From assembly GCA_964592355.1 (NCBI GenBank), contig CAZQBZ010000001.1:1-48062 (forward strand): a stretch of 48,062 nucleotides of DNA, read 5' to 3'. The stretch comes from an uncultured Candidatus Saccharibacteria bacterium. Lineage in GTDB: Bacteria; Patescibacteriota; Minisyncoccia; Minisyncoccales; Staskawiczbacteraceae. The translations under genes and the position numbers were made by a program. The notes beneath the pieces are model-generated. The model was not told the DNA's origin. It worked only from the letters and a program-made list of their open reading frames with translations, and did not search any database. Positions 1,363-44,278 of this stretch are shown here, in pieces (the first letter of the stretch is position 1; each line of letters starts with the position of its first letter).

Positions 1363-2937
1363 ATGAAAACAGTTCTATTCGCCAGAGTTTCTTCGAGAGA
1401 ACAGGAGGAAACTGGCTACTCCTTGCCCTCCCAAGAAAAACTTCTCAAGGAATATGCCGAGAAAAAAGATTTTAAAATTGGTAAAAAGTTTTCAATTTCA
1501 GAATCGGCATCCGGCCGCTATCAAAGAAAATGTTTCGACGAAATGTTAGATTATGTCAAAAATAACGACATAAAAGTTATAATCTGCGAGAAAGTTGACC
1601 GTCTTACGAGAAATTTAAAAGACGCTGTTTTTATTAACGAGTGGTTGAATAACGATTCGGAGCGACAAGTACATTTTGTAAAAGAAAACTGCATCTTAAG
1701 TAGAGATTCTAAATCTAACGACAAATTTATTTGGAATATCAAAGTTTCAACTGCTCAATACTACATAGATAATCTTTCAGAAGAGGTTAAAAAGGGACAA
1801 AAAGAAAAATTGGCTCAAGGTTGGTTTCCTCAAAAATCTCCTCTTGGTTACAAAACAATGGGAGAAAAAGGCCACAAAATACATGTTGTCGACGAAGATA
1901 AATCTTTTTTAGTTAAAAAAATGTTCGAGTTGTATTCTAGCGGGAATTATTCTCTTAAAAAATTAGTTGAGAAAATGTTTGAGGAGGGATTGAGAACTAA
2001 TGGCGGAAATAAATTATGCAAAAGTAGACTAGCGACCTTGCTATCAGACCCTTTTTATATGGGAAAGATAAGGTGGAATGACGCAGTTTACAGTGGAAAA
2101 CACGAGGCGTTAGTTTCAGAAGAGATGTTCGAATTGGTACAAAGAACGTTAAAAGGCAAAAAGACTCCAAGATACACAAAACACTTATACCTTTTTAAAG
2201 GTTTTTTAAGGTGTAATGAATGCGGAGGACTCATAACATGGGAAAAGCATAAAGGAATCGTCTACGGGCATTGTAATCACTATAGGAGCTGTTCTCAAAC
2301 GACATGGATAAAAGAGCCAGAGGCGGAGAAACAAATCTCGCACTTGTTTGGGAATTTGCAGATAAAAAATCAAAAATTAATGGAGTGGATTAAGCAAGCT
2401 CTGAAAGAAAGCCATCAAGACGAAATTCAATATCATTCTTCTGCTTTGAAGGAATTAAATTTAAGACTAGGACAAATTCAAAAGCGCATAGATAATCTTT
2501 ACGACGACAAAGTTGACGAAAAAATTACAAAAGAATTTTATGAGTCAAAGTTTAAAAAGTATTCAGAAGAAAAAGAAACTGTTTTATCGTCAATTAAAAA
2601 ACATTCTGAGTCTAGTGATAAATATCACGAGATTGGTTTGAATATCTACGAACTCTCCCAAAAAGCACCGGAATTGTATCAAAGGGCGAGTATAGAGGAA
2701 AAACAGCAATTAATGAGATTAGTTTTTGAAAATCTATCCCTTATGGGAGAAAAAATAAATTATTCTTATGCTAAACCTTTTGATTTACTGGTCGAAGCCG
2801 TAAAAGCTACAAATAGTTCTAAAGTGCTTAATTCTAAAGAATTGCCAGCCAATATTTTCGAACCTTCAGATTTTCGAATAAAAACAAACAAAAACAGGGC
2901 TTTTGACCCTGAAATTGCTTCTCTGCTCCGGTGGTAG
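1363..2937 (+). CDS. large serine recombinase (resolvase/invertase N-domain + recombinase domain + zinc ribbon + coiled coil)
   Basis: N-terminus MKTVLFARVSSREQ..GYSLPSQ carries the catalytic Ser motif. Also present: VIICEKVDRLTRN, a Cys cluster CNECGG...GHCNHY..C and a long C-terminal coiled coil. 524 aa. Confidence 0.9.
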   Translation: MKTVLFARVSSREQEETGYSLPSQEKLLKEYAEKKDFKIGKKFSISESASGRYQRKCFDEMLDYVKNNDIKVIICEKVDRLTRNLKDAVFINEWLNNDSERQVHFVKENCILSRDSKSNDKFIWNIKVSTAQYYIDNLSEEVKKGQKEKLAQGWFPQKSPLGYKTMGEKGHKIHVVDEDKSFLVKKMFELYSSGNYSLKKLVEKMFEEGLRTNGGNKLCKSRLATLLSDPFYMGKIRWNDAVYSGKHEALVSEEMFELVQRTLKGKKTPRYTKHLYLFKGFLRCNECGGLITWEKHKGIVYGHCNHYRSCSQTTWIKEPEAEKQISHLFGNLQIKNQKLMEWIKQALKESHQDEIQYHSSALKELNLRLGQIQKRIDNLYDDKVDEKITKEFYESKFKKYSEEKETVLSSIKKHSESSDKYHEIGLNIYELSQKAPELYQRASIEEKQQLMRLVFENLSLMGEKINYSYAKPFDLLVEAVKATNSSKVLNSKELPANIFEPSDFRIKTNKNRAFDPEIASLLRW

Positions 2938-3191
2938 GATTCGAACCTACGACCCACTCCTTACACATTATCCTAAAATTGCTTCTAGGGGTGGACTATA
3001 TCATTGCCATATTCTTTCGAACTTAGGCACCTCGGTATCTAGTCTCTACGGCGCTCCTCCGCAATGCGGAGGTTCCCACGGTATTGCCCACGAGGGGTTT
3101 CACCGTTATCCCGAGATTATTCATCCCAAAATTTCTTTCGGGAGCTGCAAATTGTTTACAGGGAGTCGCTCTACCGCTGAGCTACACCGGA
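2926..3191 (-). tRNA. tRNA-Asn(GUU) gene interrupted by a 194-nt group I intron in the anticodon loop (exons 3191-3158 and 2963-2926)
   Basis: Minus-strand 5' exon: TCCGGTG TA GCTC AGCGGTA GAGC G ACTCC CTGT. Minus-strand 3' exon: TAA GGAGT GGGTC GTAGG TTCGAAT CCTAC CACCGGA G. All four stems pair perfectly. U1-A72 plus discriminator G73 and the joined loop CUGUUAA fit tRNA-Asn. No CCA is encoded. Confidence 0.8.
2964..3157 (-). ncRNA. group I intron (IC3-like, tRNA-anticodon-loop type), no internal ORF
   Basis: The RNA contains CCGUAGAGACUAGAUACCGAGGUGCCUAAGUUCGAAAGAAUAUGG. This closely resembles the conserved P7/P3/P8 core (GUAGAGACUAGA...CCUAAG...UAUGG) of the Azoarcus and cyanobacterial tRNA introns as I recall them. 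P1 can form as exon CUGU paired with intron GCAG, with a U.G wobble at the splice site. The intron ends in G (2964). Confidence 0.7.
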
Positions 3192-3283
3192 ATATATTTT
3201 TATGTTTTCATAATACCCAACTTTTATTTTTTTTTCAAGTGCCGTCATTTTTATTTTGTGATAAGATATGTTTAAGAAATAAA

Positions 3284-3625
3284 ATGTTTAAAAGGTTCAC
3301 AGTTAAAAAACGCGAGCAGGCAAGGAGTTTTGTGCTTGAAAGGCTGGCTTACTTTAATCAATTCTATGGTTTTAAAATAAATCGGGTTGCTATAAAAAAT
3401 ACTTATAGAAGGTGGGGGAGTTGCTCTTCAAAAGGGAATCTTAATTTTAATTACAAGATAATTTATTTAAAACCGGAATTGGCCGATTATCTAATTGTGC
3501 ACGAACTTTGCCATTTGGGAGAATTTAATCATTCGCCTAAATTTCATGCCTTGGTGGCAAGAACAATTCCGAATTATGTTATTATAAATAAAGAATTGAG
3601 AAAAACTTCGATAAAATTTATCTAA
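3284..3625 (+). CDS. DUF45/YgjP-like (M48 family) zinc metallohydrolase, short form
   Basis: HELCHLGEFNHSPKFHALVARTIPNY matches the HExxH...H.p.F signature of the YgjP/DUF45 family. The first ATG clear of the tRNA is at 3284. The ORF-track start at 2903 runs through the tRNA and is spurious. Confidence 0.7.
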   Translation: MFKRFTVKKREQARSFVLERLAYFNQFYGFKINRVAIKNTYRRWGSCSSKGNLNFNYKIIYLKPELADYLIVHELCHLGEFNHSPKFHALVARTIPNYVIINKELRKTSIKFI

Positions 3626-3654
3626 AATTTTTTAAATAAGAGGAGTCAATTTAA

Positions 3655-4401
3655 ATGCAATGCAAACTTTGTTTAGAGGATAGGGAATTATGTAAAAATT
3701 CGCACATAATCCCGAAGTTTATGTATAAGGAAATTTTTGATGAAAAACATACCTTAGTTAAAAGTAATGTTTTGGATTTTGATAAATTAGTTCAAGATGG
3801 CGAGAAAGAAGGAAATCTGCTATGTAAAAAATGCGATAATGAACTCATTGGTTCTTTTGAAAAATACGCGTCAGAAGTTTTATATGGGGGCAATATTCAG
3901 ACAAAGCAACTGTATTATAAAAAATCAGATGAATCAGATGAAGTTGAATATACTCGGGTAGAAGGATTAGATTATAGAAAATTTAAACTATTTCTTTTGT
4001 CTATATTATGGAGGGCTAGTATCTCAAGTAAAGATTTTTTTTCTTCAGTTTCACTCGGCAGATATGAAGAGAAATTAAGGCAAATGATTTTTACTCAAAA
4101 TGCTGGCGAAGAAGGGGATTTTCCTTGTGTTTTGATATCTTATAGAAAAAGAAATTTTCCTAAAATAATAAGGTCGCCCATCAAAAAAAGGACGCAAGAT
4201 AATAAAATAACATATGATTTTTTGATAAGCGCCCTATCTTACAGATTTAAGGTTTCAGAAAATGATTCCTCGGAGTACAAAAAATTAGCAATAAAGAGAA
4301 ATGGTGAATTATACGTATATCATCCATCAGAAGATTTGGCAAAAGAAAGATTGGAAAAAATGCTCGGAATAATCATTCCGGTCGGTATGAAATTTAATTA
4401 A
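3655..4401 (+). CDS. hypothetical Cys-rich protein (CxxC...SHIIPKF...CxxC), unknown family
   Basis: 248-aa ORF preceded by AGGAG (3642-3646). It has two CxxC pairs (CKLC, CKKC) and an LLSILWRAS motif. No confident family assignment. Confidence 0.6.
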   Translation: MQCKLCLEDRELCKNSHIIPKFMYKEIFDEKHTLVKSNVLDFDKLVQDGEKEGNLLCKKCDNELIGSFEKYASEVLYGGNIQTKQLYYKKSDESDEVEYTRVEGLDYRKFKLFLLSILWRASISSKDFFSSVSLGRYEEKLRQMIFTQNAGEEGDFPCVLISYRKRNFPKIIRSPIKKRTQDNKITYDFLISALSYRFKVSENDSSEYKKLAIKRNGELYVYHPSEDLAKERLEKMLGIIIPVGMKFN

Positions 4402-4429
4402 ATTTATAGTTTTGTGGTAAAATAAATCA

Positions 4430-4981
4430 ATGGAATTGGTAGGCATATCTGCTAGTCAAATTTTTTGGTCACTTTGGCCTCTATGGGCTGTTTTATTAGC
4501 AGTTCCTATATTTGAATTAATTACTCTTTGGATTCGCATAATTTTAAAAAAAAGGCGCATTCGTAGAAAATTTATAAAAGGTGGAGAATGGAGGTCGGAT
4601 AATGAGCTTTTACATTGGCTTCGTGAAATGAAGCCTTGGGAATTTGAAGAATATATTGCTTATTTATTCACGCAACTGGGTTACAAAGCTAAAGCAGTTG
4701 GCAAATCACATGATGGAGGCATTGATGTTGTCATTGAAAAAGATGGCGTTGAAAGCTATATCCAATGTAAAAAATTTATAACTTCTAGTGTGACTGTCAG
4801 CCAAGTCCGCGATTTTTAAGGTTCATTGGTTGATCATCTTGCCAAGGGAAAAGCATATTTTATTACTACTAATAAATTTACCTTAGAGGCGGAAAAATTC
4901 GTCGAAGATAAGCCGATTGAACTTGTGGACGGATTTAAATTGATTGAATACATCAAACTTAGCAAAAAACAGGCAAGATAA
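4430..4981 (+). pseudogene. membrane-anchored Mrr-type (Mrr_cat) restriction endonuclease interrupted by an in-frame TAA at 4817-4819
   Basis: An N-terminal TM segment is followed by WEFEEYIAYLFTQLGY...HDGGIDVVIEKDG..YIQCKK, the D...(D/E)xK nuclease core. After VRDF-TAA the same frame continues as GSLVDHLAKGKAYFITTNKFTLEAEKFVEDKPIELVDGFKLIEYI up to a TAA at 4979-4981. This is the expected rest of the domain. Confidence 0.75.
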
Positions 4982-5100
4982 TTAACCGGCCTGTTTTTAA
5001 TTGGCATAAAATAGATAGCTTATCCGGGTTAGGTCCATTGCAGAGAAGGGAAATATAATATAAGATAACGCATCTCGTTCTTTGATTTGAAAGGAGAATT

Positions 5101-5802
5101 GTGGTGCCGAAAAAAACCAAAAAGACCGATAAGAAGGTAAAAGCTCTGGTGGAAATTTATCTTAGCAGTATTGGCGAGGTGCCTCTGCTTAGCCTTGCCC
5201 AAGAAATCTGGCTGTCAAAGAGAATCGAGCTGGGCAGCAGTTGGGCCCGGCAATACCTTACCAAGGCAAACTTGCGGCTGGTGGTGTCGCGCGCAAAGCT
5301 TTATGTAAAGCGCTCGTTGAACCTCACCCTGTTGGGCCTGATACAAGAAGGCAACATCGGCTTAATGGGCGCTGTGGAAAAATACGACTGGCGGTACAAT
5401 TGCCGGTTTTCCACTTATGCTGTGCCTCGCATCGACAGGGCAATTGAGCGCGCATTGTTTTACGACAATCGCGGCAGTGTTGCCCATTTTTCAATGGACG
5501 AACCCATTGGCCAAGAGGGTGATGAAAGCATGCACGGCCTCGTGGGCGACCAAAAGGCGGTTTGCCCAAGCGCCAAAGCCAATCAAGTGTCTCTGCAAAA
5601 CATTTTTGATGAAGTTTTGCAGGAGCTTAAAGAAAAAGAGCAACAGGTAATCAGCCTTAGCTTCGGGCTTGGCAACGGAGTTGCTTACACAGACAAGGAA
5701 ATTGCCAGGATTCTTGGCACAACCAAGGAAAGGGTGCGCCAGATCAAGGCAAAGGCGCTTAGACGCCTGAAAAACCACGAACGCATTGCCGGACTCAAAT
5801 AG
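5101..5802 (+). CDS. sigma-70 family RNA polymerase sigma factor, divergent short paralog of RpoD
   Basis: [52 protein letters not shown] covers region 2. TDKEIARILGTTKERVRQIKAKALRRLK is the region 4 HTH. GTG start with AGGAG at 5092-5096. Visibly GC-richer than its neighbours. Confidence 0.85.
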   Translation: MVPKKTKKTDKKVKALVEIYLSSIGEVPLLSLAQEIWLSKRIELGSSWARQYLTKANLRLVVSRAKLYVKRSLNLTLLGLIQEGNIGLMGAVEKYDWRYNCRFSTYAVPRIDRAIERALFYDNRGSVAHFSMDEPIGQEGDESMHGLVGDQKAVCPSAKANQVSLQNIFDEVLQELKEKEQQVISLSFGLGNGVAYTDKEIARILGTTKERVRQIKAKALRRLKNHERIAGLK

Positions 5803-7227: not shown

Positions 7228-7682
7228 TGAAAAAGAAAAATAAGCAAATAATAAATATAATAATTATTTCTCTTGCCGCAATCGCGCTTGCCGGAGCAAT
7301 TACGTTTTGGATTTATAAAGCATTTTTGGGGCCTAAAACCGATATATATTCGGGCACATGGGTTTGGGAAAAGACAATAATGAACGACGACACAACAATT
7401 ATGCCAAATCAGGCAGAAGCCTTCACTTTAACCTTTGTAATTGGCGGCAGGGTTTCCGGCGAAACGGACTGTAATGGTTTTACCGGCAATTTTGCGATCA
7501 CGCAGGACGGGAGTATAACTTTTAACCAGTTGGCAAGCACAGAAATGTTTTGCCAGGATTCGCAAGAAAATATATTTTTAGACGAAATTCAAAATGTTGA
7601 CCGATATCTTTTTGATAAATCGGGAAACTTGGTGCTCAATTTAAAGTTTGATTCGGGGAGCATTTATTTTAAAAAACAATAA
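7227..7682 (+). CDS. META domain protein (HslJ-like), membrane anchored
   Basis: CNGFTGNFAITQDGSITFNQLASTEMFC...ENIFLDEIQNVDRYLFDKSGNLVL matches the META/DUF306 pattern. The internal ATG at 7227 was chosen because it is translationally coupled to the upstream stop. Confidence 0.75.
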   Translation: MKKKNKQIINIIIISLAAIALAGAITFWIYKAFLGPKTDIYSGTWVWEKTIMNDDTTIMPNQAEAFTLTFVIGGRVSGETDCNGFTGNFAITQDGSITFNQLASTEMFCQDSQENIFLDEIQNVDRYLFDKSGNLVLNLKFDSGSIYFKKQ

Positions 7683-7715
7683 TATCGCTACGCTATAACA
7701 ATTAAAAATTAAAAA

Positions 7716-7740
7716 CCCGCCGACGCCCGACGTCGGCGGG
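7716..7740. repeat. 25-nt GC-rich palindrome (terminator-like hairpin), repeat copy 1
   Basis: CCCGCCGACG-CCCGA-CGTCGGCGGG, flanked by A-runs. Its reverse complement is identical over 24 nt to 11334-11357 inside atpH. Confidence 0.8.
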
Positions 7741-11291: not shown

Positions 11292-11658
11292 GGATTACGC
11301 AAAAGCCTTGGCCGAAGTTTTATCGGCCAAAAACCCGCCGACGTCGGGCGTCGGCGGAATTTCAGTGGGGTTTATAAAATTATTGGAAAAGCAAGGAGAC
11401 CTGGGTAAAGCCAAAGAAATATTGGAAAAGACAGAAATTTTTTTGGCAAAAAAGCAGGGTAAAAAATCCATAACATTTGAGACGGCAAGAAAATTGACAG
11501 ACAATCAAAAGAAATCTTTTTCAAAATTTATTGAAAAAGGCGACGTGGTGAAAGAAAAAATAAGCCCGGATTTGATTGCAGGTATAAAGATTGTGATTGA
11601 TGGCGACAGGCAAATTGATTATTCAATGAAAAACAAAATAAACAAAATATTCTCATGA
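11275..11658 (+). CDS. atpH: F0F1 ATP synthase subunit delta (short, 127 aa), carrying an in-frame palindromic repeat
   Basis: Lies between b and alpha. N-terminus is YAKALAEVL and the C-terminus IAGIKIVIDGDRQIDYSMKNKI is delta/OSCP-like. It overlaps atpF by 17 nt and atpA by 4 nt. Confidence 0.8.
   Translation: MKYKVKDYAKALAEVLSAKNPPTSGVGGISVGFIKLLEKQGDLGKAKEILEKTEIFLAKKQGKKSITFETARKLTDNQKKSFSKFIEKGDVVKEKISPDLIAGIKIVIDGDRQIDYSMKNKINKIFS
11334..11357. repeat. 24-nt GC-rich palindrome inside the atpH coding sequence, repeat copy 2
   Basis: CCCGCCGACGTCGGGCGTCGGCGG is the reverse complement of 7717-7740. It encodes PPTSGVGG in frame within atpH. Confidence 0.8.
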
Positions 11659-15671: not shown

Positions 15672-15713
15672 TCGCTCGGCCATTGCCTTTGCAAATTGAC
15701 GGGATAATTATCC
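15672..15713 (+). repeat. type-B repeat element, left half only (truncated by or fused to type A)
   Basis: TCGCTCGGCCATTGCCTTTGCAAATTGACGGGATAATT is identical to the left ends at 37091 and 44072. It starts 1 nt after the atpD stop. Confidence 0.85.
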
Positions 15714-15849
15714 CGCTCGGCAACAGATTTGAAAGTGTACGCTCGCCCTTCCAGCGAAGGGCTCGCTCAGGTCCTCGCGCCTGGCGCGCCGCATAGCGGC
15801 GACCAGCCGCCAGGGCTGCGGCAGCCACTTTCAAACCTATTGCCTCGCT
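15714..15849 (+). repeat. type-A MITE-like palindromic repeat element, copy A1
   Basis: Termini are CGCTCGGCAACAGATTTGAAAGTG ... CCACTTTCAAACCTATTGCCTCGCT, enclosing a GC-rich hairpin-rich core. Homologous to 34762-34905 and 38546-38688. Confidence 0.85.
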
Positions 15850-15860
15850 ATAAAATATCT

Positions 15861-18374: not shown

Positions 18375-18458
18375 GGAGAAGTCGCATAGCGGCTATTGCA
18401 ACGCCCTGGAAAGGCGTGCCCTTAACGGGGCCCGTGGGTTCGAGTCCCACCTTCTCCG
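18375..18458 (+). tRNA. tRNA-Ser(GGA)
   Basis: GGAGAAG/CTTCTCC acceptor stem, ACGCC-CTGGAAA-GGCGT anticodon arm (GGA), long variable arm, GTGGG-TTCGAGT-CCCAC T arm and discriminator G. No CCA is encoded. Confidence 0.85.
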
Positions 18459-18542: not shown

Positions 18543-20096
18543 ATGTCTGGTAATAATCAAGAACAAATTATATCTCTTAGAAATTCATGCCTAGCAAATG
18601 CCGAAGCCTTATTGTCAATGGCCGAGAGAGAAATAGGCAAAGGAGTCGATCATGTGTGCTTTCATTTGGGTCTTTTGGCATTAGAAGAAATAGGAGAGGC
18701 TGTAATCGCCACCATAAATTATACTAACGATGTTGCAGGTAAGCGAAATGAGGATTTATATGCTGCAATGTATGATCACGTAAAGAAGGCGTTTTGGGCG
18801 ATATGGGGTGAAAGCGTTATTGACAGTCAGGGGCTTCTTAAAAAGAATTTAGAAGATAATATTCATCTCGCTACGACCCTTCACAAAAGGAGACTCGAAT
18901 CACTTTATACAAACCCAGATAATCCTCTTCCTTTAGATAAACGGGTTGAGGATAAGGAGTTAACCATGCTTATAAACCTTACAAGGGCTCGGTTAGAGTA
19001 TGAAAAAAGTAAGGAAATAAAACCATTAGATGAGGTTGATACCGAAATATTATTGTGGTATTTTAATGCTTTAGAAAATCCTGATATTAGGAAATATATA
19101 TTTAGTAAGCCATCATTGGATAAATTTGTAGAATTACAACAGGGCGGTGAATGGATAAAGTGGTTGCGGCAAGAATTTAAAAAGCATGAAGAGGAAATGC
19201 GTAAGCTTGCAAAGGAAGAAATTGAAAGACGAACACCCGAAGAAAAAGATGCTCTTAAACCAAAATATAAAATGCGAGTGCGAATACAAACACCATCTCA
19301 TTCTATTAGGAATGGCGCTTTCGCAAGTTGGAATTCCGGTATAGACAACATTAAATTGTACAAGTCGGACAAAAAGGGTGCAAAGAAGCTATCAAAGGGC
19401 GAGATAATAATTGATTTTACTTTTCCAAAAAAGTTGCTGGTTCAGGGTCTCTGGGAACACGGTCTCTACATGGCAAAGACGCTCATCGTTGCTCTTAATG
19501 TAGCCACACTCGGTGTTTTTTGGTGGAATGTGCAAAAAGATATTGAAAAATATTATGAAGAAATTTTAGACCTGGAACGAGATCCGAAGGGAGGAGTAAA
19601 GATTGGTATTGTTCCCCCAAAAAGGTTGAATGTTAATTTTGACCAAGGGATGTTTGTTCTTGACGATAAAGAAATGCAAAATGTAAATTACATGGCAGCT
19701 TACCTCCTTCGTAATTCCAAAAAGCTAGAGGAGTATTTGAAATCTTATGCAATGGCATTGACTCTTTTCAGTAAGACTGACATTCATCTGCGACTGGAAG
19801 TTAATGCGTTTGATGAGTTTTATAAAGCGTTAAAGCATGCCATGATAGCCTTAGGAGATTGGGATAGTAAGGCCGATTTTATGAATGCCGTTAAAAACAA
19901 GTTAAAGGAAGTAGGGGAACTAAAAGAAATCGATCGTACACTTCAGCTGGGAAAGATGTTGGACGAGGATGAAAAAAGAGAAAAATATCATCCTATTACA
20001 TTGACAGAAGTTATTGCTATGAAAGTGTACTGTGATTATTATGTACAGCTTAAGGCTCGTGATTATTTCAGAGAAGAAGAGAAAAAAGTCAGTTAG
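18543..20096 (+). CDS. large hypothetical protein with an N-terminal AbiV/HEPN-like domain (candidate abortive-infection/defence protein)
   Basis: 517 aa. The N-terminus CLANAEALLSMAEREIGKGVDHVCFHLGLLALEEIGEAVI resembles the AbiV-family pattern (NA..LL..A..L......A.fL..lA.EE.GKa) as I recall it. The remainder, including a charged coiled-coil segment, is unassigned. Confidence 0.45.
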   Translation: MSGNNQEQIISLRNSCLANAEALLSMAEREIGKGVDHVCFHLGLLALEEIGEAVIATINYTNDVAGKRNEDLYAAMYDHVKKAFWAIWGESVIDSQGLLKKNLEDNIHLATTLHKRRLESLYTNPDNPLPLDKRVEDKELTMLINLTRARLEYEKSKEIKPLDEVDTEILLWYFNALENPDIRKYIFSKPSLDKFVELQQGGEWIKWLRQEFKKHEEEMRKLAKEEIERRTPEEKDALKPKYKMRVRIQTPSHSIRNGAFASWNSGIDNIKLYKSDKKGAKKLSKGEIIIDFTFPKKLLVQGLWEHGLYMAKTLIVALNVATLGVFWWNVQKDIEKYYEEILDLERDPKGGVKIGIVPPKRLNVNFDQGMFVLDDKEMQNVNYMAAYLLRNSKKLEEYLKSYAMALTLFSKTDIHLRLEVNAFDEFYKALKHAMIALGDWDSKADFMNAVKNKLKEVGELKEIDRTLQLGKMLDEDEKREKYHPITLTEVIAMKVYCDYYVQLKARDYFREEEKKVS

Positions 20097-22337: not shown

Positions 22338-22423
22338 ATATGATTTTGAATAAATATAAATCCACGAGCTTACGCTCGCAGTATTATATCGCTACGCTAA
22401 AAACGTCAGAAATAATAAAAATT

Positions 22424-29060: not shown

Positions 29061-30201
29061 AAAGACAGTCGCTAAAAAAGCAAAAAAAGAAACAAAAGCG
29101 GCAAAAAAGACGGCTGTAAAAAAACAAAAAAAGCCCGTTTTTGACGCAGAAGGAATTGCAAAATTGCAGAGAAAAGGCGAGGAACGAGGCTTTGTGACAA
29201 CGGCGGAGATTTTGTATGTTTTTCCAAATATTGAAAGAGATATAGAGGGCTTTGAAAAGATGTATGACGACTTCAGGGAAAAGGGCATAGAGATAAAAGA
29301 AATGCAGGACTTTTTGGAAACTAAAAAACAAAAAGAAAAGAAGCAAAAAAAGGCCCTGATTGGCAAGATAGATCCTATTCAAATGTATTTGAAAGAAATC
29401 GGCAAATCAAGCTTTTTGTCGGCAAGGGAAGAAAAAGAATTGGCAAAGAGAATCGAAGCAGGCGACGAAGAGGCAAAAAACAGGCTTGCTTTGGCAAACC
29501 TCAGGCTTGTGGTTTCTATTGCCAAAAAATATGTGGGCCGCAGCCCAAATTTAACTTTATTGGATTTAATCCAAGAGGGAAATTTGGGGCTTTTCAAGGC
29601 TGTTAAAAAATTTGATTGGAGGAAGGGTTATAAATTTTCGACTTATGCGACCTGGTGGATCAGGCAATCGATTACAAGGGCTTTGGCTGACCAGGCCAGG
29701 ACAATCCGTATTCCTGTGCACATGATAGAAACAATTTCAAAATACACAAAAGTGCGCAAATCTTTATTGCAAGAGCTTGGCAGAGAGCCTCTTGCCGAGG
29801 AAATTGCGGCTGAAATGGGATTAGAGGTGGATAAAGTCCATCATATCAGAAAAATTGCCCAGAAAGCCGTTTCCTTGGAAACCCCCGTAGGAGAAGATAA
29901 GGATAAACAGGATTCGGTGCTGGCCGAGTTTATAAAAGACGACAAGACAATAGCCCCAAATACAGAAGCTTCAAGAAATCTATTAAAAGACAGGCTGAAA
30001 GAAATTTCAGGAGAGCTTACTCCAAGAGAATTGAAAATTTTGGGAATGAGATTCGGTCTTGAAGACGGAGTAATGCATACCCTAGAAGAAACAGGGGAGG
30101 AGTTTGGCGTTACAAGAGAGAGAATCAGGCAAATCCAGGCAAAAGCATTGGAAAAACTCAGAAAACACAAAGAACTCAAAAAGGTTAAGGATTATTATTA
30201 A
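29041..30201 (+). CDS. rpoD: RNA polymerase primary sigma factor
   Basis: Regions 1.2 to 4 are all present: [51 protein letters not shown] and [17 protein letters not shown]. The N-terminus is Lys-rich. Lies directly after dnaG. Confidence 0.95.
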
Positions 30202-30216
30202 TCGCGAATAAAAATA

Positions 30217-30368
30217 GGCTTCCTGTTTGACGCTCATTCCGCCCAGGTCGGGAAATCCCGCTTCGCGGGAATTTCTCGCGACCAGAAGCGACGAAATTGG
30301 CTCATGTCCTCGGCAAATTTTGCCTTCGGCAAACCATGCAATTTGCCTCCGGATCCTAACAGGAGACC
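30217..30368. repeat. type-D palindromic repeat element containing a type-C hairpin module (30244-30290)
   Basis: Terminal inverted repeat GGCTTCCTGTT ... AACAGGAGACC. The interior CAGGTCGGGAAATCCCGCTTCGCGGGAATTTCTCGCGACCAGAAGCG is homologous to 44115-44161. Followed by a T-run. Confidence 0.7.
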
Positions 30369-30420
30369 TATTTTTTTATTTGTCTTGCCAAGGATTTTTT
30401 CTATGGTAAAATAAATAAAT

Positions 30421-33905: not shown

Positions 33906-34754
33906 ATGAAGAAAATTATTCTCTTGCCAATAATCTTGGCAATTATTATTCTAATTTTAATTGGCATATTGGTTTTTTATAAAACACCGCAATCTGAGGT
34001 TCAGGCTCCGACAATTCAGGGGGGGATTATTGTGAGTTCTCTGGTGGAAGATCAGGAAATTTCTTCGCCGTTGAAAATTGCAGGATACGTTAACGGACAA
34101 GGATGGACGGGCTTTGAGGGTCAAGTTGGCACAGTCACGCTGCTTGATTATAAAGGCAACGAATTAGCCACAGAAGTTTTAAAAGCTACAACAGATTGGA
34201 CCCAGCTTCCGACTCAATTTGAAGCGGAACTCGAGTTTGTGCCAGCAAGCAGCGGACCGGCAACACTTTTATTTAAAAATGAAAATGCCAGCGGTTTACC
34301 GGAAAATAACAGAGAATTCTCATTGCTGGTGTCAGTAAAACAAGAACAGGAGCCGGAAACAATGGAGGTGAGCGTATTCTTTAATAACAACAATCTCGAC
34401 CCCCAAGTCAGCTGCAATAAAGTTTTTGAGGTAAAAAGAACCATTCCTAAGACGGGAGCAATTGCGAGAGCGGCCATTGAGGAGCTTTTAAAGGGGCCGA
34501 CCCAGCAGGAAATAAAATCAGGATATTATACGAATATAAACAGCGGAGTGAAATTGAATAACATAAGCATTCAAAAAACCAATCCGCCCTCCGCGCTTGT
34601 TGATTTTGATGAACAACTGCAGTTTCAGGTTGGGGGGTCTTGTAAAGTCGGAGCAATCAGAGCGCAGATAACCCAAACCTTAAAACAGTTTCCATCAATT
34701 GAAGACGTGATTATTTCAATAAACGGCAGAACAGAAGATATTTTACAGCCTTAA
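33906..34754 (+). CDS. Gmad2 Ig-like + GerMN domain protein, membrane anchored
   Basis: N-terminal TM segment, SSPLKIAGYVNGQGWTGFEGQVG (Gmad2-like) and VSVFFNN...RAAIEELLKGPT (GerMN-like). Confidence 0.65.
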   Translation: MKKIILLPIILAIIILILIGILVFYKTPQSEVQAPTIQGGIIVSSLVEDQEISSPLKIAGYVNGQGWTGFEGQVGTVTLLDYKGNELATEVLKATTDWTQLPTQFEAELEFVPASSGPATLLFKNENASGLPENNREFSLLVSVKQEQEPETMEVSVFFNNNNLDPQVSCNKVFEVKRTIPKTGAIARAAIEELLKGPTQQEIKSGYYTNINSGVKLNNISIQKTNPPSALVDFDEQLQFQVGGSCKVGAIRAQITQTLKQFPSIEDVIISINGRTEDILQP

Positions 34755-34761
34755 ATCTTAC

Positions 34762-34905
34762 CGCTCGGCAACAGCTTTGAAAGTGTGCGCTCGTTCCGCC
34801 AGCGCGGAACTCGCTCAGGTCCTCGCTCCTGGCGCCCCTCGCCAAAATGGCTCGGGGAACCAGCCGCCAGGGCTGCGAAGCCACTTTCAAAGCTGTTACC
34901 TCGCT
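34762..34905 (+). repeat. type-A MITE-like palindromic repeat element, copy A2
   Basis: Termini are CGCTCGGCAACAGCTTTGAAAGTG ... CCACTTTCAAAGCTGTTACCTCGCT. Nearly identical to the reverse complement of 38546-38688. Confidence 0.88.
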
Positions 34906-37090: not shown

Positions 37091-37091
37091 T

Positions 37092-37234
37092 CGCTCGGCC
37101 ATTGCCTTTGCAAATTGACGGGATAATTTTTGCCAGCGCAAAAATTTCCCTCAGAACTCGCCCCGCCAGTCGCCCTTCGGGCGACACCGTGCTGGCGGGG
37201 CTCCGTTATGCATTTGCAAAGGCAAGGCCTCGCT
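37092..37234 (+). repeat. type-B MITE-like palindromic repeat element, copy B2 (complete)
   Basis: Termini are CGCTCGGCCATTGCCTTTGCAAAT ... ATTTGCAAAGGCAAGGCCTCGCT, with internal nested hairpins. Starts 1 nt after the queA stop. Confidence 0.88.
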
Positions 37235-37251
37235 TGTTATAAAATTATCGT

Positions 37252-38545: not shown

Positions 38546-38688
38546 GCGAGGCAATAGGTTTGAAAGTGGCTTCGCAGCCCTGGCGGCTGGTTCCCCGAGC
38601 CATTTTGGCGAGGGGCGCCAGGAGCGAGGACCTGAGCGAACTCCGCGCTGGCGGAGTGAGCGTACACTTTTAAAGCTGTTGCCGAGCG
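38546..38688 (-). repeat. type-A MITE-like palindromic repeat element, copy A3 (inverted orientation)
   Basis: The reverse complement reads ..CGCTCGGCAACAGCTTTAAAAGTG...CCACTTTCAAACCTATTGCCTCGCC, and its core is nearly identical to A2. Confidence 0.88.
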
Positions 38689-38701
38689 TCTATTTTAAAA
38701 C

Positions 38702-39310
38702 ATGGAAAAATATATTTTGCCCGAGTTGCCGTTTGGTTATAAAGATTTGGAGCCATATATTACAGAAGAAACTTTGCGTTATCATCACGATAAGCATCAC
38801 CAGGCATATGTTAACAATTTAAACACCGCGGTGGACAAGCACCCCGAACTTTTTGAAAAATCTGTTGAAGAATTGCTGACAAATTTAGATGTTGTGCCAG
38901 AGGACATTCGCCAGGCCGTAAAAAATAATGGCGGGGGAGTTGCCAACCACACATTGTATTGGAATAGCATGGCAAAGGGCTCAGGCCAGCCTGTTGGCGA
39001 ATTGGCCGGTGCGATTAATAAAACTTTTGGCAGCTTTGAAGATTTTAAGCAAAAATTTGAGGAAGAAGGCTTAAAAAGATTTGGCTCAGGCTGGGTGTGG
39101 CTGGTGAAAAATGATTCGGGTGAGTTGGAGATTTTATCAACCGCAAATCAAGACACTCCTTTGTCGGATGGAAAAATTCCAATTTTGTTGAACGATGTTT
39201 GGGAGCATGCCTATTATTTGCAATATAAAAATCTGCGGGCAGACTATTTAAAAGCCTGGTGGAATATAGTAAACTGGCAAGAAGCCGAAAAAAGGTATAT
39301 AAATAAGTAA
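38702..39310 (+). CDS. sodA: Fe/Mn superoxide dismutase
   Basis: LPELPFGYKDLEPYI, HHDKHHQAYV and DVWEHAYYL. Confidence 0.95.
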   Translation: MEKYILPELPFGYKDLEPYITEETLRYHHDKHHQAYVNNLNTAVDKHPELFEKSVEELLTNLDVVPEDIRQAVKNNGGGVANHTLYWNSMAKGSGQPVGELAGAINKTFGSFEDFKQKFEEEGLKRFGSGWVWLVKNDSGELEILSTANQDTPLSDGKIPILLNDVWEHAYYLQYKNLRADYLKAWWNIVNWQEAEKRYINK

Positions 39311-40004: not shown

Positions 40005-40460
40005 ATGAAAGATTTTTATGTGATTTGCGATAGCATTCGCAGCTTGGAAAATATAGGGTCGATTTTTAGAACGGCTGACGCATTAGGGGTGACAAAAATA
40101 TATCTTTGCGGAATATGCGGAACTCCGCCAAACCCAAAAATTTCAAAAACGGCCCTTGGCGCCGAAAAGAATGTTCCCTGGGAATATGTAAAACAAACAG
40201 GCAGATTGATAGATAAATTAAAAAAGCAGGGAATTGAGGTTGTGGCACTGGAGCAGGCCGAAGGTTCAATTGATTACGCAAAATATAGGCCCAAATTTCC
40301 GGTTGCCCTGATTGTTGGCAATGAAGTAAAAGGAATTTCTCCCAAGATCTTGCAAAAATGCGATAAAGTAATAGAATTGCCAATGTCGGGAAAAAAAGAA
40401 AGCCTAAATGTGTCAGTGGCTTTTGGGGTTGCTGGCTACGAAATTGTTAAGAGTAAATAA
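40005..40460 (+). CDS. SpoU/TrmH family RNA 2'-O-methyltransferase
   Basis: NIGSIFRTADALG, ALIVGNEVKGIS and IELPMSGKKESLNVSVAFGV. Confidence 0.88.
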   Translation: MKDFYVICDSIRSLENIGSIFRTADALGVTKIYLCGICGTPPNPKISKTALGAEKNVPWEYVKQTGRLIDKLKKQGIEVVALEQAEGSIDYAKYRPKFPVALIVGNEVKGISPKILQKCDKVIELPMSGKKESLNVSVAFGVAGYEIVKSK

Positions 40461-40496
40461 TATCGCTACGCTAAGTAAAATTAAAAACAAATTAAT

Positions 40497-42363: not shown

Positions 42364-42539
42364 ATATATATTTGCATCTACCGATAGTCGTTTTGCCCAG
42401 CGGCAAAACGCTATCTGCATTCTCGGCAATTTGCTCCTCGCCCGCGGGCGAGGAGACCATGCCAAATTGCCTGCGAAAGCTAGATCCAAATATATATAGC
42501 GAAATCTAATAAAACCATTTTCAAACCTATCGCCTCGCT
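42364..42539. repeat. type-E palindromic repeat (42364-42498) followed by a solo type-A right terminus (42516-42539)
   Basis: Terminal inverted repeat TATATATATTTGCATCTA ... TAGATCCAAATATATATA, with internal hairpins GTTTTGCC-CAG-CGGCAAAAC and CTCCTCGCC-CGC-GGGCGAGGAG. After it, CCATTTTCAAACCTATCGCCTCGCT matches the type-A right end. Confidence 0.7.
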
Positions 42540-42554
42540 ATTAAATTTAAAAAC

Positions 42555-43040
42555 ATGAAAACAAAAACACCAAAAACCTGTGCGGCATTATACACCCCAA
42601 AAGTAATGGAGGCTTTTAAAAATCCGCATAATTACGGAAAGATAAAAAATCCATCAGGCATCGGCAAGGTGGGAAATTTGGTTTGCGGCGATGTAATGTG
42701 GCTGTACATAAAAGTTGACGAAAAAGAGAAAATAACAGACATAAAGTTTGAAACTTTTGGTTGCGTGGCCGCAATTGCCACCAGCTCAATGATTACAGAT
42801 TTGGCAAAAGGCAAGACAATAACACAGGCCTTAAAGCTCAAAAAAGACGACATTATCAAAAAACTCGGGGGGCTGCCATCTATAAAATACCATTGCTCAG
42901 TGTTGGCAATAGACGCCTTGGTTGAGGCTGTTTACGACTATTATTTAAGCCAGGGAAAGGATTTTCCGGAAGGGTTGCAGGAAAAGCACAAAGTCATTGC
43001 CAAAGAAAAAGAAATGGCAGAGAAAACATTTGAAGATTAA
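42555..43040 (+). CDS. nifU: Fe-S cluster assembly scaffold (NifU/IscU type)
   Basis: CGDVMWLYI, FGCVAAIATSS and HCSVLAIDAL (three ligand Cys). Confidence 0.92.
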   Translation: MKTKTPKTCAALYTPKVMEAFKNPHNYGKIKNPSGIGKVGNLVCGDVMWLYIKVDEKEKITDIKFETFGCVAAIATSSMITDLAKGKTITQALKLKKDDIIKKLGGLPSIKYHCSVLAIDALVEAVYDYYLSQGKDFPEGLQEKHKVIAKEKEMAEKTFED

Positions 43041-44069: not shown

Positions 44070-44072
44070 TAT

Positions 44073-44257
44073 CGCTCGGCCATTGCCTTTGCAAATTGAC
44101 GGGATAATTTTTGCCAGGTCGGGAAGTCCTGCTTTGCAGGAACTTCTCGCGACCAGAAGCGCAAAAATTTCCCTCAGAACTCGCCCCGCCAGTCGCCCTT
44201 AGGGCGACACCGTGCTGGCGGGGCTCCGTTATGCATTTGCAAAGGCAAGGCCTCGCT
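44073..44257 (+). repeat. type-B repeat element copy B3 carrying a nested type-C hairpin module (44115-44161)
   Basis: Same termini as B2. Relative to B2, 42 nt (GTCGGGAAGTCCTGCTTTGCAGGAACTTCTCGCGACCAGAAG) are inserted in the loop of the GGGATAATTTTTGCCAG/CGCAAAAATTTCCC hairpin. Confidence 0.88.
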
Positions 44258-44278
44258 TAAAGCAATAATAAAAATACA

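Follow-up and report, generated by a model that had tools for sequence, protein, structure and literature searches.

In the 48,062-nt stretch of DNA analysed here (the window), the spaces between genes hold a hairpin module, C, which is on balance probably a REP-like mobile DNA element, miniature and non-autonomous, recognised in its folded form, inserted directly 3' of C-Y-A(G) and held to its shape by the competence or retention of the copies that keep it.

The window holds exactly two copies of C, found with a degenerate pattern for which 0 matches are expected in shuffled sequence, and a covariance model places them at 68 and 66 bits, with the next match at 10 bits. The core is laid out as GGTCG, a single G, a 10-bp upper stem, a loop of 3-4 nt, the returning arm of the upper stem with one bulged base, TCG, and CGACC. 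That of copy 2 (44117-44154) reads GGTCG-G-GAAGTCCTGC-TTT-GCAGG(A)ACTTC-TCG-CGACC, while copy 1 (30246-30283), inside the host element D, has the upper stem GAAATCCCGC/GCGGG(A)ATTTC. The hairpin is predicted to form on either strand at -22 to -24 kcal/mol (z -1.9 to -3.4). An earlier sequence-only reading had claimed that the module recurs within D and that differences between the two copies at paired positions are compensated. Both claims are confirmed by reading the sequence: A/G is paired with T/C and C/T with G/A, both stem differences being compensated, and the only other difference is one loop base. The pairing of the stem also stands, although its arms are not a perfect 10/11 match, as the 3' arm bears one extra bulged base, and this base is a kept feature of the family.

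Both copies lie within larger composite hairpins (Table 1). B2 and B3 are one 145-nt composite palindrome, with 100% identity over the 5' 46 nt and 99% over the 3' 101 nt, and B3 differs by an extra 42 nt between ..TTTTTGCCAG and CGCAAAAATTT... The two sequences are otherwise collinear, which bears out the proposal of a 42-nt insertion in the loop of an internal B hairpin; the interval first singled out, 44115-44161, takes in the whole insert, which has boundaries that are ambiguous by up to 2 nt owing to a shared AG. The insertion site lies between G and C of the CAGC tetraloop of the hairpin aatttttgcCAGCgcaaaaatt (37125-37146 in B2), written here as CAG^C with the caret at the junction. B3 is a three-helix composite of an outer stem, P2 with C inside, and a P3 module at 44180-44228; D encloses hairpin 1, with C inside, and a P3 module at 30308-30352. 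Among perfect hairpins of at least 6 bp in the window, CAGC is the most frequent tetraloop, five being empty and two holding C.

Table 1. Copies of module C, their host elements and related features. Coordinates are those of the window unless a locus (L number) is named.
Feature	Location	Strand	Evidence or remark
Module C copy 1, 38-nt hairpin core in element D	30246..30283	+	covariance model 68.2 bits, pattern match, fold
Module C copy 2, 38-nt hairpin core	44117..44154	+	covariance model 66.2 bits, pattern match, fold
42-nt segment in D hairpin 1, at CAG^C	30247..30288	+	orthologous L144 hairpin lacks the segment
42-nt segment in B3, at CAG^C of P2 tetraloop	44118..44159	+	missing from B-type elements B2, L118 and L127
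Host element D	30205..30375	+	terminator-like outer stem followed by T-run, downstream of rpoD
Host element B3	44072..44258	+	DNA fold -60.5/-63.1 kcal/mol, z -8.7/-8.9
Host element B2, P2 loop empty	37091..37235	+	empty site between 37136 and 37137
Empty CAGC-loop hairpin gcccttcCAGCgaagggc	15745..15762	+	candidate target of the same kind
Empty CAGC-loop hairpin gttccgcCAGCgcggaac	34793..34810	+	
Empty CAGC-loop hairpin actccgcCAGCgcggagt	38640..38657	-	within inverted A-type element
Empty CAGC-loop hairpin cgttttgccCAGCggcaaaacg	42389..42410	+	
Divergent tract, 63 nt	30180..30242	+	20 differences from L136 (alignment with L136)
Composite elements with common termini, window	15672-15856, 34741-34904, 38546-38709(-), 37091-37235, 44072-44258		
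Composite elements with common termini, L127	1892-2040, 4196-4341, 5599-5767, 9353-9511, 11030-11237		
Composite element with common termini, L129	2983-3215		

The module is widely distributed beyond the window. A metagenome scan with the pattern GGTCGGGAA-N16-20-TTCTCGCGACC returned 81 loci, all but five in contigs of low GC (0.30-0.46), and removal of duplicates left 79 loci with 50 distinct cores. Exact protein matches and the names of homologues place the window and several of these loci in Candidatus Staskawiczbacteria and other Patescibacteria, and several of the samples that carry C are 0.1-um groundwater filtrates. With a covariance model, 95 matches were found in 566 kb of these loci, and every non-spurious placement was intergenic. 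Copies are mostly singlets, at a density of about 1 per 15-100 kb; where there are several, they are either kilobases apart or nested or in tandem with the same orientation. A function as DNA-uptake sequence was considered and is ruled out by this density and by the covarying stems. A scan of a genome collection with GGTCGGGN{20,26}TCGCGACCAGAAG gave only chance matches in high-GC genomes, the AGAAG tail being too specific, and the sole match in the viral contigs scanned was a chance one in a high-GC coding region. The Rfam scan of the window reported tRNA only, with no family for C at the gathering threshold; by E-value the best matches to C reached 0.09-0.5, far under gathering scores. The literature searched gave no description of these repeats and no report of REPs in CPR bacteria.

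Covariation was assessed in an alignment of the 50 distinct cores, all from other contigs. The structure has 15-16 pairs, and 7 of 15 show compensatory change. Watson-Crick or wobble pairs fill 97.6% of the stem cells against 87.4% in shuffles, none of the 500 shuffles reaching the observed value, while sliding the 3' partner by 1-3 columns brings pairing down to 34-49%; RNAalifold arrives unaided at the same helix. With more copies collected, the matched changes seen in the window prove to be general, as 92 double-change cells were observed (25 expected) against 24 non-Watson-Crick cells, 18 of which are not standard pairs. Pair 13-31 is UA in 20 cores, AU in 14, CG in 8 and GC in 7, with one mismatch. 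The parts of the structure that do not pair are kept as well: the unpaired G at column 9 is present in 50/50 cores, TCG in 49/50, and the bulge occurs at the same place in 48/50, its identity being free (A 32, T 13, G 3, C 2). GGTCGGG..TCTCGCGACC, the 1x3 internal loop G/TCG and CYA on the 5' side are nearly invariant. For the stem base this is partly ascertainment because the search pattern fixed 20 of the 38 bases, but thirteen extra copies, with no more than two mismatches in the fixed part, covary at the stem base as well (GGGAG..CTCTCG, GGGAT..ATCTCG, GGTCA..TGACC). The claim of selection for, or of copying dependent on, a hairpin rather than primary sequence is therefore supported, with the refinement that primary sequence counts too, since stem base, internal loop and CYA are nearly invariant. 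A kink-turn was considered for the internal loop and set aside on inspection, as the non-bulged strand has CC where GA is needed.

Presence and absence of C at identical positions is seen in several loci. Five aligned B-type elements differ by the 42-nt indel at the same CAG^C, which is filled in B3 and L086 and empty in B2, L118 and L127; L118 carries a copy of the same subfamily in the loop of its P3 hairpin instead. Empty CAG^C sites exist for both the B and the D host hairpins, which supports the nested insertion originally proposed, and the polymorphism in occupancy probably reflects insertion rather than deletion. The inserts at other filled and empty pairs, including L115, are of 41, 42 or 44 nt, that is, the core and a 3' tail of 3-5 nt. 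The junctions of these pairs are ambiguous by 1-4 nt and show no target-site duplication of a consistent kind; with the 3' tail variable as well, the unit has no defined ends. Copies also enter each other. L077 has three, each nested in the next one's loop (GC-TA[copy]CGA-AAGC), L125 has a nest related to that of L077 and, in addition, a copy inside the internal loop of another, and in L103 two copies stand in tandem.

Directly 5' of the core, 48 of the 79 loci have CTA and 15 have CCA (together 63/79), so that with the first G of the core the sequence reads CYAG^GTCG; CYA is already there in 3 of 6 empty sites. The flank on the right begins with C, A or T, starting with CTA in 16/79 loci (about a fifth), and the full CTAC, complementary to GTAG, was seen by eye in about nine. 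CTA is found on both sides in 16/79 loci, or 13/77 where flanks are of full length. A TA or CTA target duplication, as for an IS630/Tc1-like element, was rejected because right and left flanks agree in those 16/79 loci only, and identity as a terminator was rejected because C has no T-run, its flanks being CTA, AGA or CGA (the T-run belongs to the outer stem of the host D). Around 60-61% of copies fall within a predicted host stem compared with 40-48% for controls with mismatched flanks, a modest difference. AT-rich flanks surround 11 of 77 copies, so that C can also be found by itself, which answers whether it is ever found outside other elements. Another motif, ATATCGCTACGCTA(T/A)A, occurs three to four times in the window (7679-7715, 22383-22419 and 40457-40493, and 42524-42560). 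Between SpoU and DUF5652 it is an insertion of about 12 nt relative to L127 and L129, and TCGCTA^CGCT is the insertion site of C in six other loci (..CGCTA[C]CTACGC..); the motif may be the scar of an element or a landing site.

The spacer between rpoD and alkD was compared across strains in which RpoD is 95-100% identical. Hairpin 1 of D contains C in the window, L136 and L064; the homologous hairpin of L144, GTCCCGC-CAGC-GCGGGAT, is unbroken and without C, and L145-L148 have plain terminators and no D. The C cores of the window and L064 have four base differences, which are exactly two complementary pairs (A-T to T-A, C-G to T-A), a pattern with an estimated chance of about 1e-4, and L136 differs from L064 by one more compensated pair, in the host stem. 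The segment 30273-30362 runs from the 3' half of C through the 3' arm of hairpin 1 to P3. Compared with L064 (3320-3410) it has a single difference in about 90 nt, whereas the rest diverges by about 16%; it is either under strong constraint or recently homogenised. Relative to L136, which has an identical RpoD and an overall divergence of about 0.7%, the window contains the divergent tract 30180-30242, which extends as far as the left junction of C, the next 257 bases being identical. This tract leaves the D of the window with mismatched stems in hairpin 1 and on the outside. It is read here, from the alignment, as a probable conversion or repair tract bounded by the junction of C; a tract ending exactly there is as expected if the junction is a site of strand breakage and repair, with which it fits without being proof. 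Between rpoD and D, L144 also has extra hairpin repeats at 3662-3760 (AGTGAGTGAGCGAAGTGAAAATTTATTTTCACTTCCGAACGAACG.., AAAAACTCGAAGAGTTTTT) that are not in the window.

The same tract has a place in an explanation in which C is not mobile at all. Occupancy would then come from recombination or gene conversion among the cassettes A, B, D and E, and compensation from hairpin-templated repair (quasi-palindrome correction) rather than from selection. Cassette types do swap at orthologous intergenic sites, the D of the window looks chimeric with its breakpoint at the edge of C, one subfamily of C (GAAGTCCTGC) travels with B-type hosts, and microhomology at the junctions is only 1-4 nt. However, C is found in at least eight unrelated contexts, among them AT-rich flanks without a host element, as well as in different loops of the same host type and inside itself, and its CYA flank is conserved across contexts. 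Templated palindrome repair is expected to erase asymmetries, while shape recognition is expected to keep them; the bulge and the 1x3 loop survive in 48-50 of 50 cores, which disfavours compensation by simple palindrome-templated repair. The explanation as a whole is unlikely. Practically no weight is left for the idea that the two double changes in the window are coincidental and C a fragment common to two degenerate repeats: it could draw on there being just two copies in the window, but is refuted by the 92 compensated cells in 50 cores and by the orthologous pair of the window and L064.

Whether the hairpin acts as DNA or as RNA was left open by the sequence-only reading. Selection at the RNA level would tolerate G.T but not A.C, and the 24 non-Watson-Crick cells comprise 6 G.T and 7 A.C, giving no excess of wobble. 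Where the genes on both sides are co-directional, 26 of the de-duplicated copies lie on the sense strand and 11 on the opposite one (p=0.02; about 70:30), and a few copies lie between divergent or convergent genes. With wobble not in excess, 30% of copies antisense and no matching Rfam family, a DNA hairpin is better supported than an RNA hairpin, either as a DNA-level element or under a strand-symmetric constraint, with a moderate orientation bias remaining; the sense bias is also compatible with an RNA role or strand-specific insertion. A functional RNA hairpin (e.g. protein-binding, stabilising or processing) in polycistronic transcripts, selected as RNA and spread by duplication of composite elements, would accommodate that bias, the location of copies between co-transcribed housekeeping genes (e.g. 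tgt-queA-queH, rpoD-alkD, mnmA), the strong covariation with a conserved internal loop and bulge, and the near identity of window and L064 in the part of D that lies 3' of C. It is nevertheless improbable, given not only the antisense copies and the wobble counts but also the orthologous and paralogous sites that lack C and are otherwise unchanged, the self-nesting three deep, for which there is no obvious RNA rationale, and the want of an Rfam match or of association with a particular gene family.

If C is mobile DNA, a trans-acting nuclease or transposase presumably moves it, possibly one that is HUH/Y1-like. Searches with tblastn using E. coli RayT and an approximate IS200 TnpA gave a best E of 0.18 in 585 kb of fragments. 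The 40 proteins of the window include no Y1 transposase and no integrase, the sole recombinase being a large serine recombinase in an unrelated island. When 558 ORFs around the modules were clustered, no gene family recurred beside C; the ten clusters inspected look housekeeping by sequence (RpoD, AtpA, SecD, LepA, SpoU, Rrf2), and no transposase-like ORF lies near C in the loci examined. The genes between inverted pairs of C in L074 and L107 were considered as transposases and are ordinary histidine kinases and membrane proteins. The serine recombinase (Resolvase, Recombinase and Zn ribbon, 1363-2937) belongs to a cluster at 1363-5802 with a YgjP-like metallopeptidase, an unknown protein, a fragment of an Mrr-type restriction endonuclease (4430-4819) and, at 5101-5802, a short sigma-70-like factor; the cluster is probably a mobile island that has integrated. 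Elsewhere, a tRNA gene (18375-18458) is directly followed by a 517-aa protein (18543-20096) with an N-terminal HEPN/AbiV domain, which may be a defence gene at a tRNA-linked insertion site.

Among known systems, C works like REP/REPIN sequences and the BIME mosaics, without the GTAG head, the doublets, a detected RAYT or an Rfam family. REP/REPIN sequences, which are mobilised by RAYT (TnpA-REP) in Proteobacteria, are like C short, imperfect, extragenic palindromes of 20-40 nt in multiple copies, with a conserved hairpin foot and a short flank, in either orientation, and with bulges or mismatches of a kind that suggests recognition of folded single-stranded DNA; compensatory changes are reported to be common in REPIN hairpins (PMC3116915), as they are in the stem of C. 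Unlike REPs, C lacks the GT(A/G)G 5' foot, having CTA (48) or CCA (15) as its 5' flank, comes mostly as singlets rather than as inverted doublets at fixed spacing, has yielded no gene for a RAYT, the Y1 HUH transposase that REPs usually flank, in 585 kb of fragments and one 48-kb window, and sits in the loops of other hairpins and of its own copies in a CPR host. As in the BIMEs of enterobacteria, elements bearing C are intergenic mosaics of a few types of palindromic unit, after genes and within operons, but the units are nested, hairpin in loop, instead of side by side with fixed linkers, and whole cassettes with the termini TCGCTCGG...CCTCGCT are exchanged at orthologous sites.

Other mobile elements resemble C in part. 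IS200/IS605 elements and their miniature derivatives, the PATEs, insert 3' of a specific tetra- or pentanucleotide without duplication, as C may do after CYA/CYAG, although its right end follows no clear rule; also similar are the imperfect hairpin with an extrahelical base and a target that is likely single-stranded. However, C is one hairpin instead of distinct subterminal ones at left and right, its 3' tail varies, the searches gave no TnpA and its orientation bias is only moderate. A MITE would have terminal inverted repeats flanked by a target-site duplication of fixed length, while C shows no consistent duplication and has inserts of 41, 42 or 44 nt. The attC sites are similar in that structure is kept with free stem sequence, extrahelical bases mark one strand and the context is cassette-like, but C has no R''/R' core sites (RYYYAAC / GTTRRRY), no integrase or cassette array, and is a non-coding 38 nt. 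An intrinsic terminator is a G+C-rich hairpin directly followed by a T-run, which C is not. IS1397, ISKpn1 and members of the IS110 family insert in REP loops and are full-length, transposase-encoding elements. The loop of an intergenic palindrome is the insertion site for these as for C, but the inserting unit of C is itself a 42-nt hairpin.

The host elements of C are also variable. The genes beside them are all housekeeping (atp operon, dnaG, rpoD, alkD-like, tgt, queA, queH, sodA, iscS, nifU, mnmA), and the spacers are almost wholly taken up by GC-rich elements. The termini TCGCTCGG...CCTCGCT are common to the A, B and E types, at least three interior types. Relatives 0-5% apart in RpoD have different elements or none at the same sites: between mnmA and DUF1858 there is a 4-nt ATGA overlap in L129-L132, a 211-nt spacer with B3 and C in the window and an A-type element in L127; between queA and queH there is B in the window and A in L127; and between NRDD and sodA there is an inverted A in the window and B in L127 and L086. 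Spacers with ordinary terminators, unlike these, are kept across relatives. Because orthologous spacers hold different types or none, the whole system of elements appears to be in rapid turnover, with C as one layer of it. The orientation of C relative to the termini of its host could be compared in just four informative cases, too few to draw on.

Some further features of the host elements were observed. The P3 sub-module recurs at 30308-30352, 44180-44228, 37153-37201, 42431-42476, 15771-15822 and 34827-34885, and reads CTCGG-stem-[variable inner hairpin]-ACC(A/G)TGC-stem'-CTCCG/CTGCG. Its copies have wholly different stems but keep the unpaired motifs, and it appears to be a second family of modules with covariation. 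Both P3 and the element termini have stems with a TC/TC 2x2 mismatch in the context C-TC-GG / CC-TC-G (e.g. 44072-44081 / 44249-44257), which on the minus strand is CGAG/CGAG. CGAG/CGAG is the pyrimidine-GA-purine context for stable tandem sheared G.A pairs, and this suggests that it may be the bottom strand that folds and functions. Two near-identical GC-rich hairpins at 7711-7740 and 11329-11362 (AAAACCCGCCGACG(C/T)C(C/G)G(A/G)CGTCGGCGG), which match each other both directly and as reverse complement, make up another small family of repeats.

For C as a mobile DNA element of the REP type, a mechanism can be proposed. The unit would be the imperfect palindrome of 38-39 nt with its 3' tail of 3-5 nt, copied into single-stranded or extruded DNA directly 3' of C-Y-A(G). 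Preferred sites would be the loops of existing hairpins, namely CAG^C tetraloops, the loop of another C, and TCGCTA^CGCT motifs. The substrate recognised is presumably single-stranded DNA, the folded strand being marked by the invariant lower stem GGTCG/CGACC, the G/TCG internal loop and the bulge five pairs up the 3' arm. If competence or retention depends on a copy keeping this shape, the upper stem would drift by compensated changes while the stem base stays fixed. In a gene-dense genome, survivorship may add to the nesting, loops being the only harmless sites. The setting for all of this would be a BIME-like mosaic, with palindromic cassettes undergoing turnover at orthologous sites between genes.

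The ultra-small CPR bacteria (Patescibacteria) have tiny, gene-dense genomes that are usually described as poor in mobile DNA. In the window, hairpin elements that form a modular and apparently active population fill the intergenic space. Much more tentatively than the mobility of C itself, it is possible that Candidatus Staskawiczbacteria and related CPR possess an undescribed mobile-DNA system without a RAYT or IS200-type enzyme, in which structure-specific cleavage 3' of CYAG within hairpin loops serves to insert 40-nt hairpins, giving recursively nested palindromes, and in which whole non-coding cassettes bounded by TCGCTCGG...CCTCGCT are swapped at fixed landing sites between genes. With 50 variants, all four pair types at one position and conserved bulges, the family offers a clean natural example of selection for nucleic-acid shape. 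Repeats of this type will break CPR metagenome assemblies and confuse binning, and they could serve as strain markers. The sequence CYAG^GTCGGG.. provides a defined substrate for finding the enzyme that moves C, and if this enzyme is not a RAYT, it would represent a new structure-specific DNA-insertion activity.
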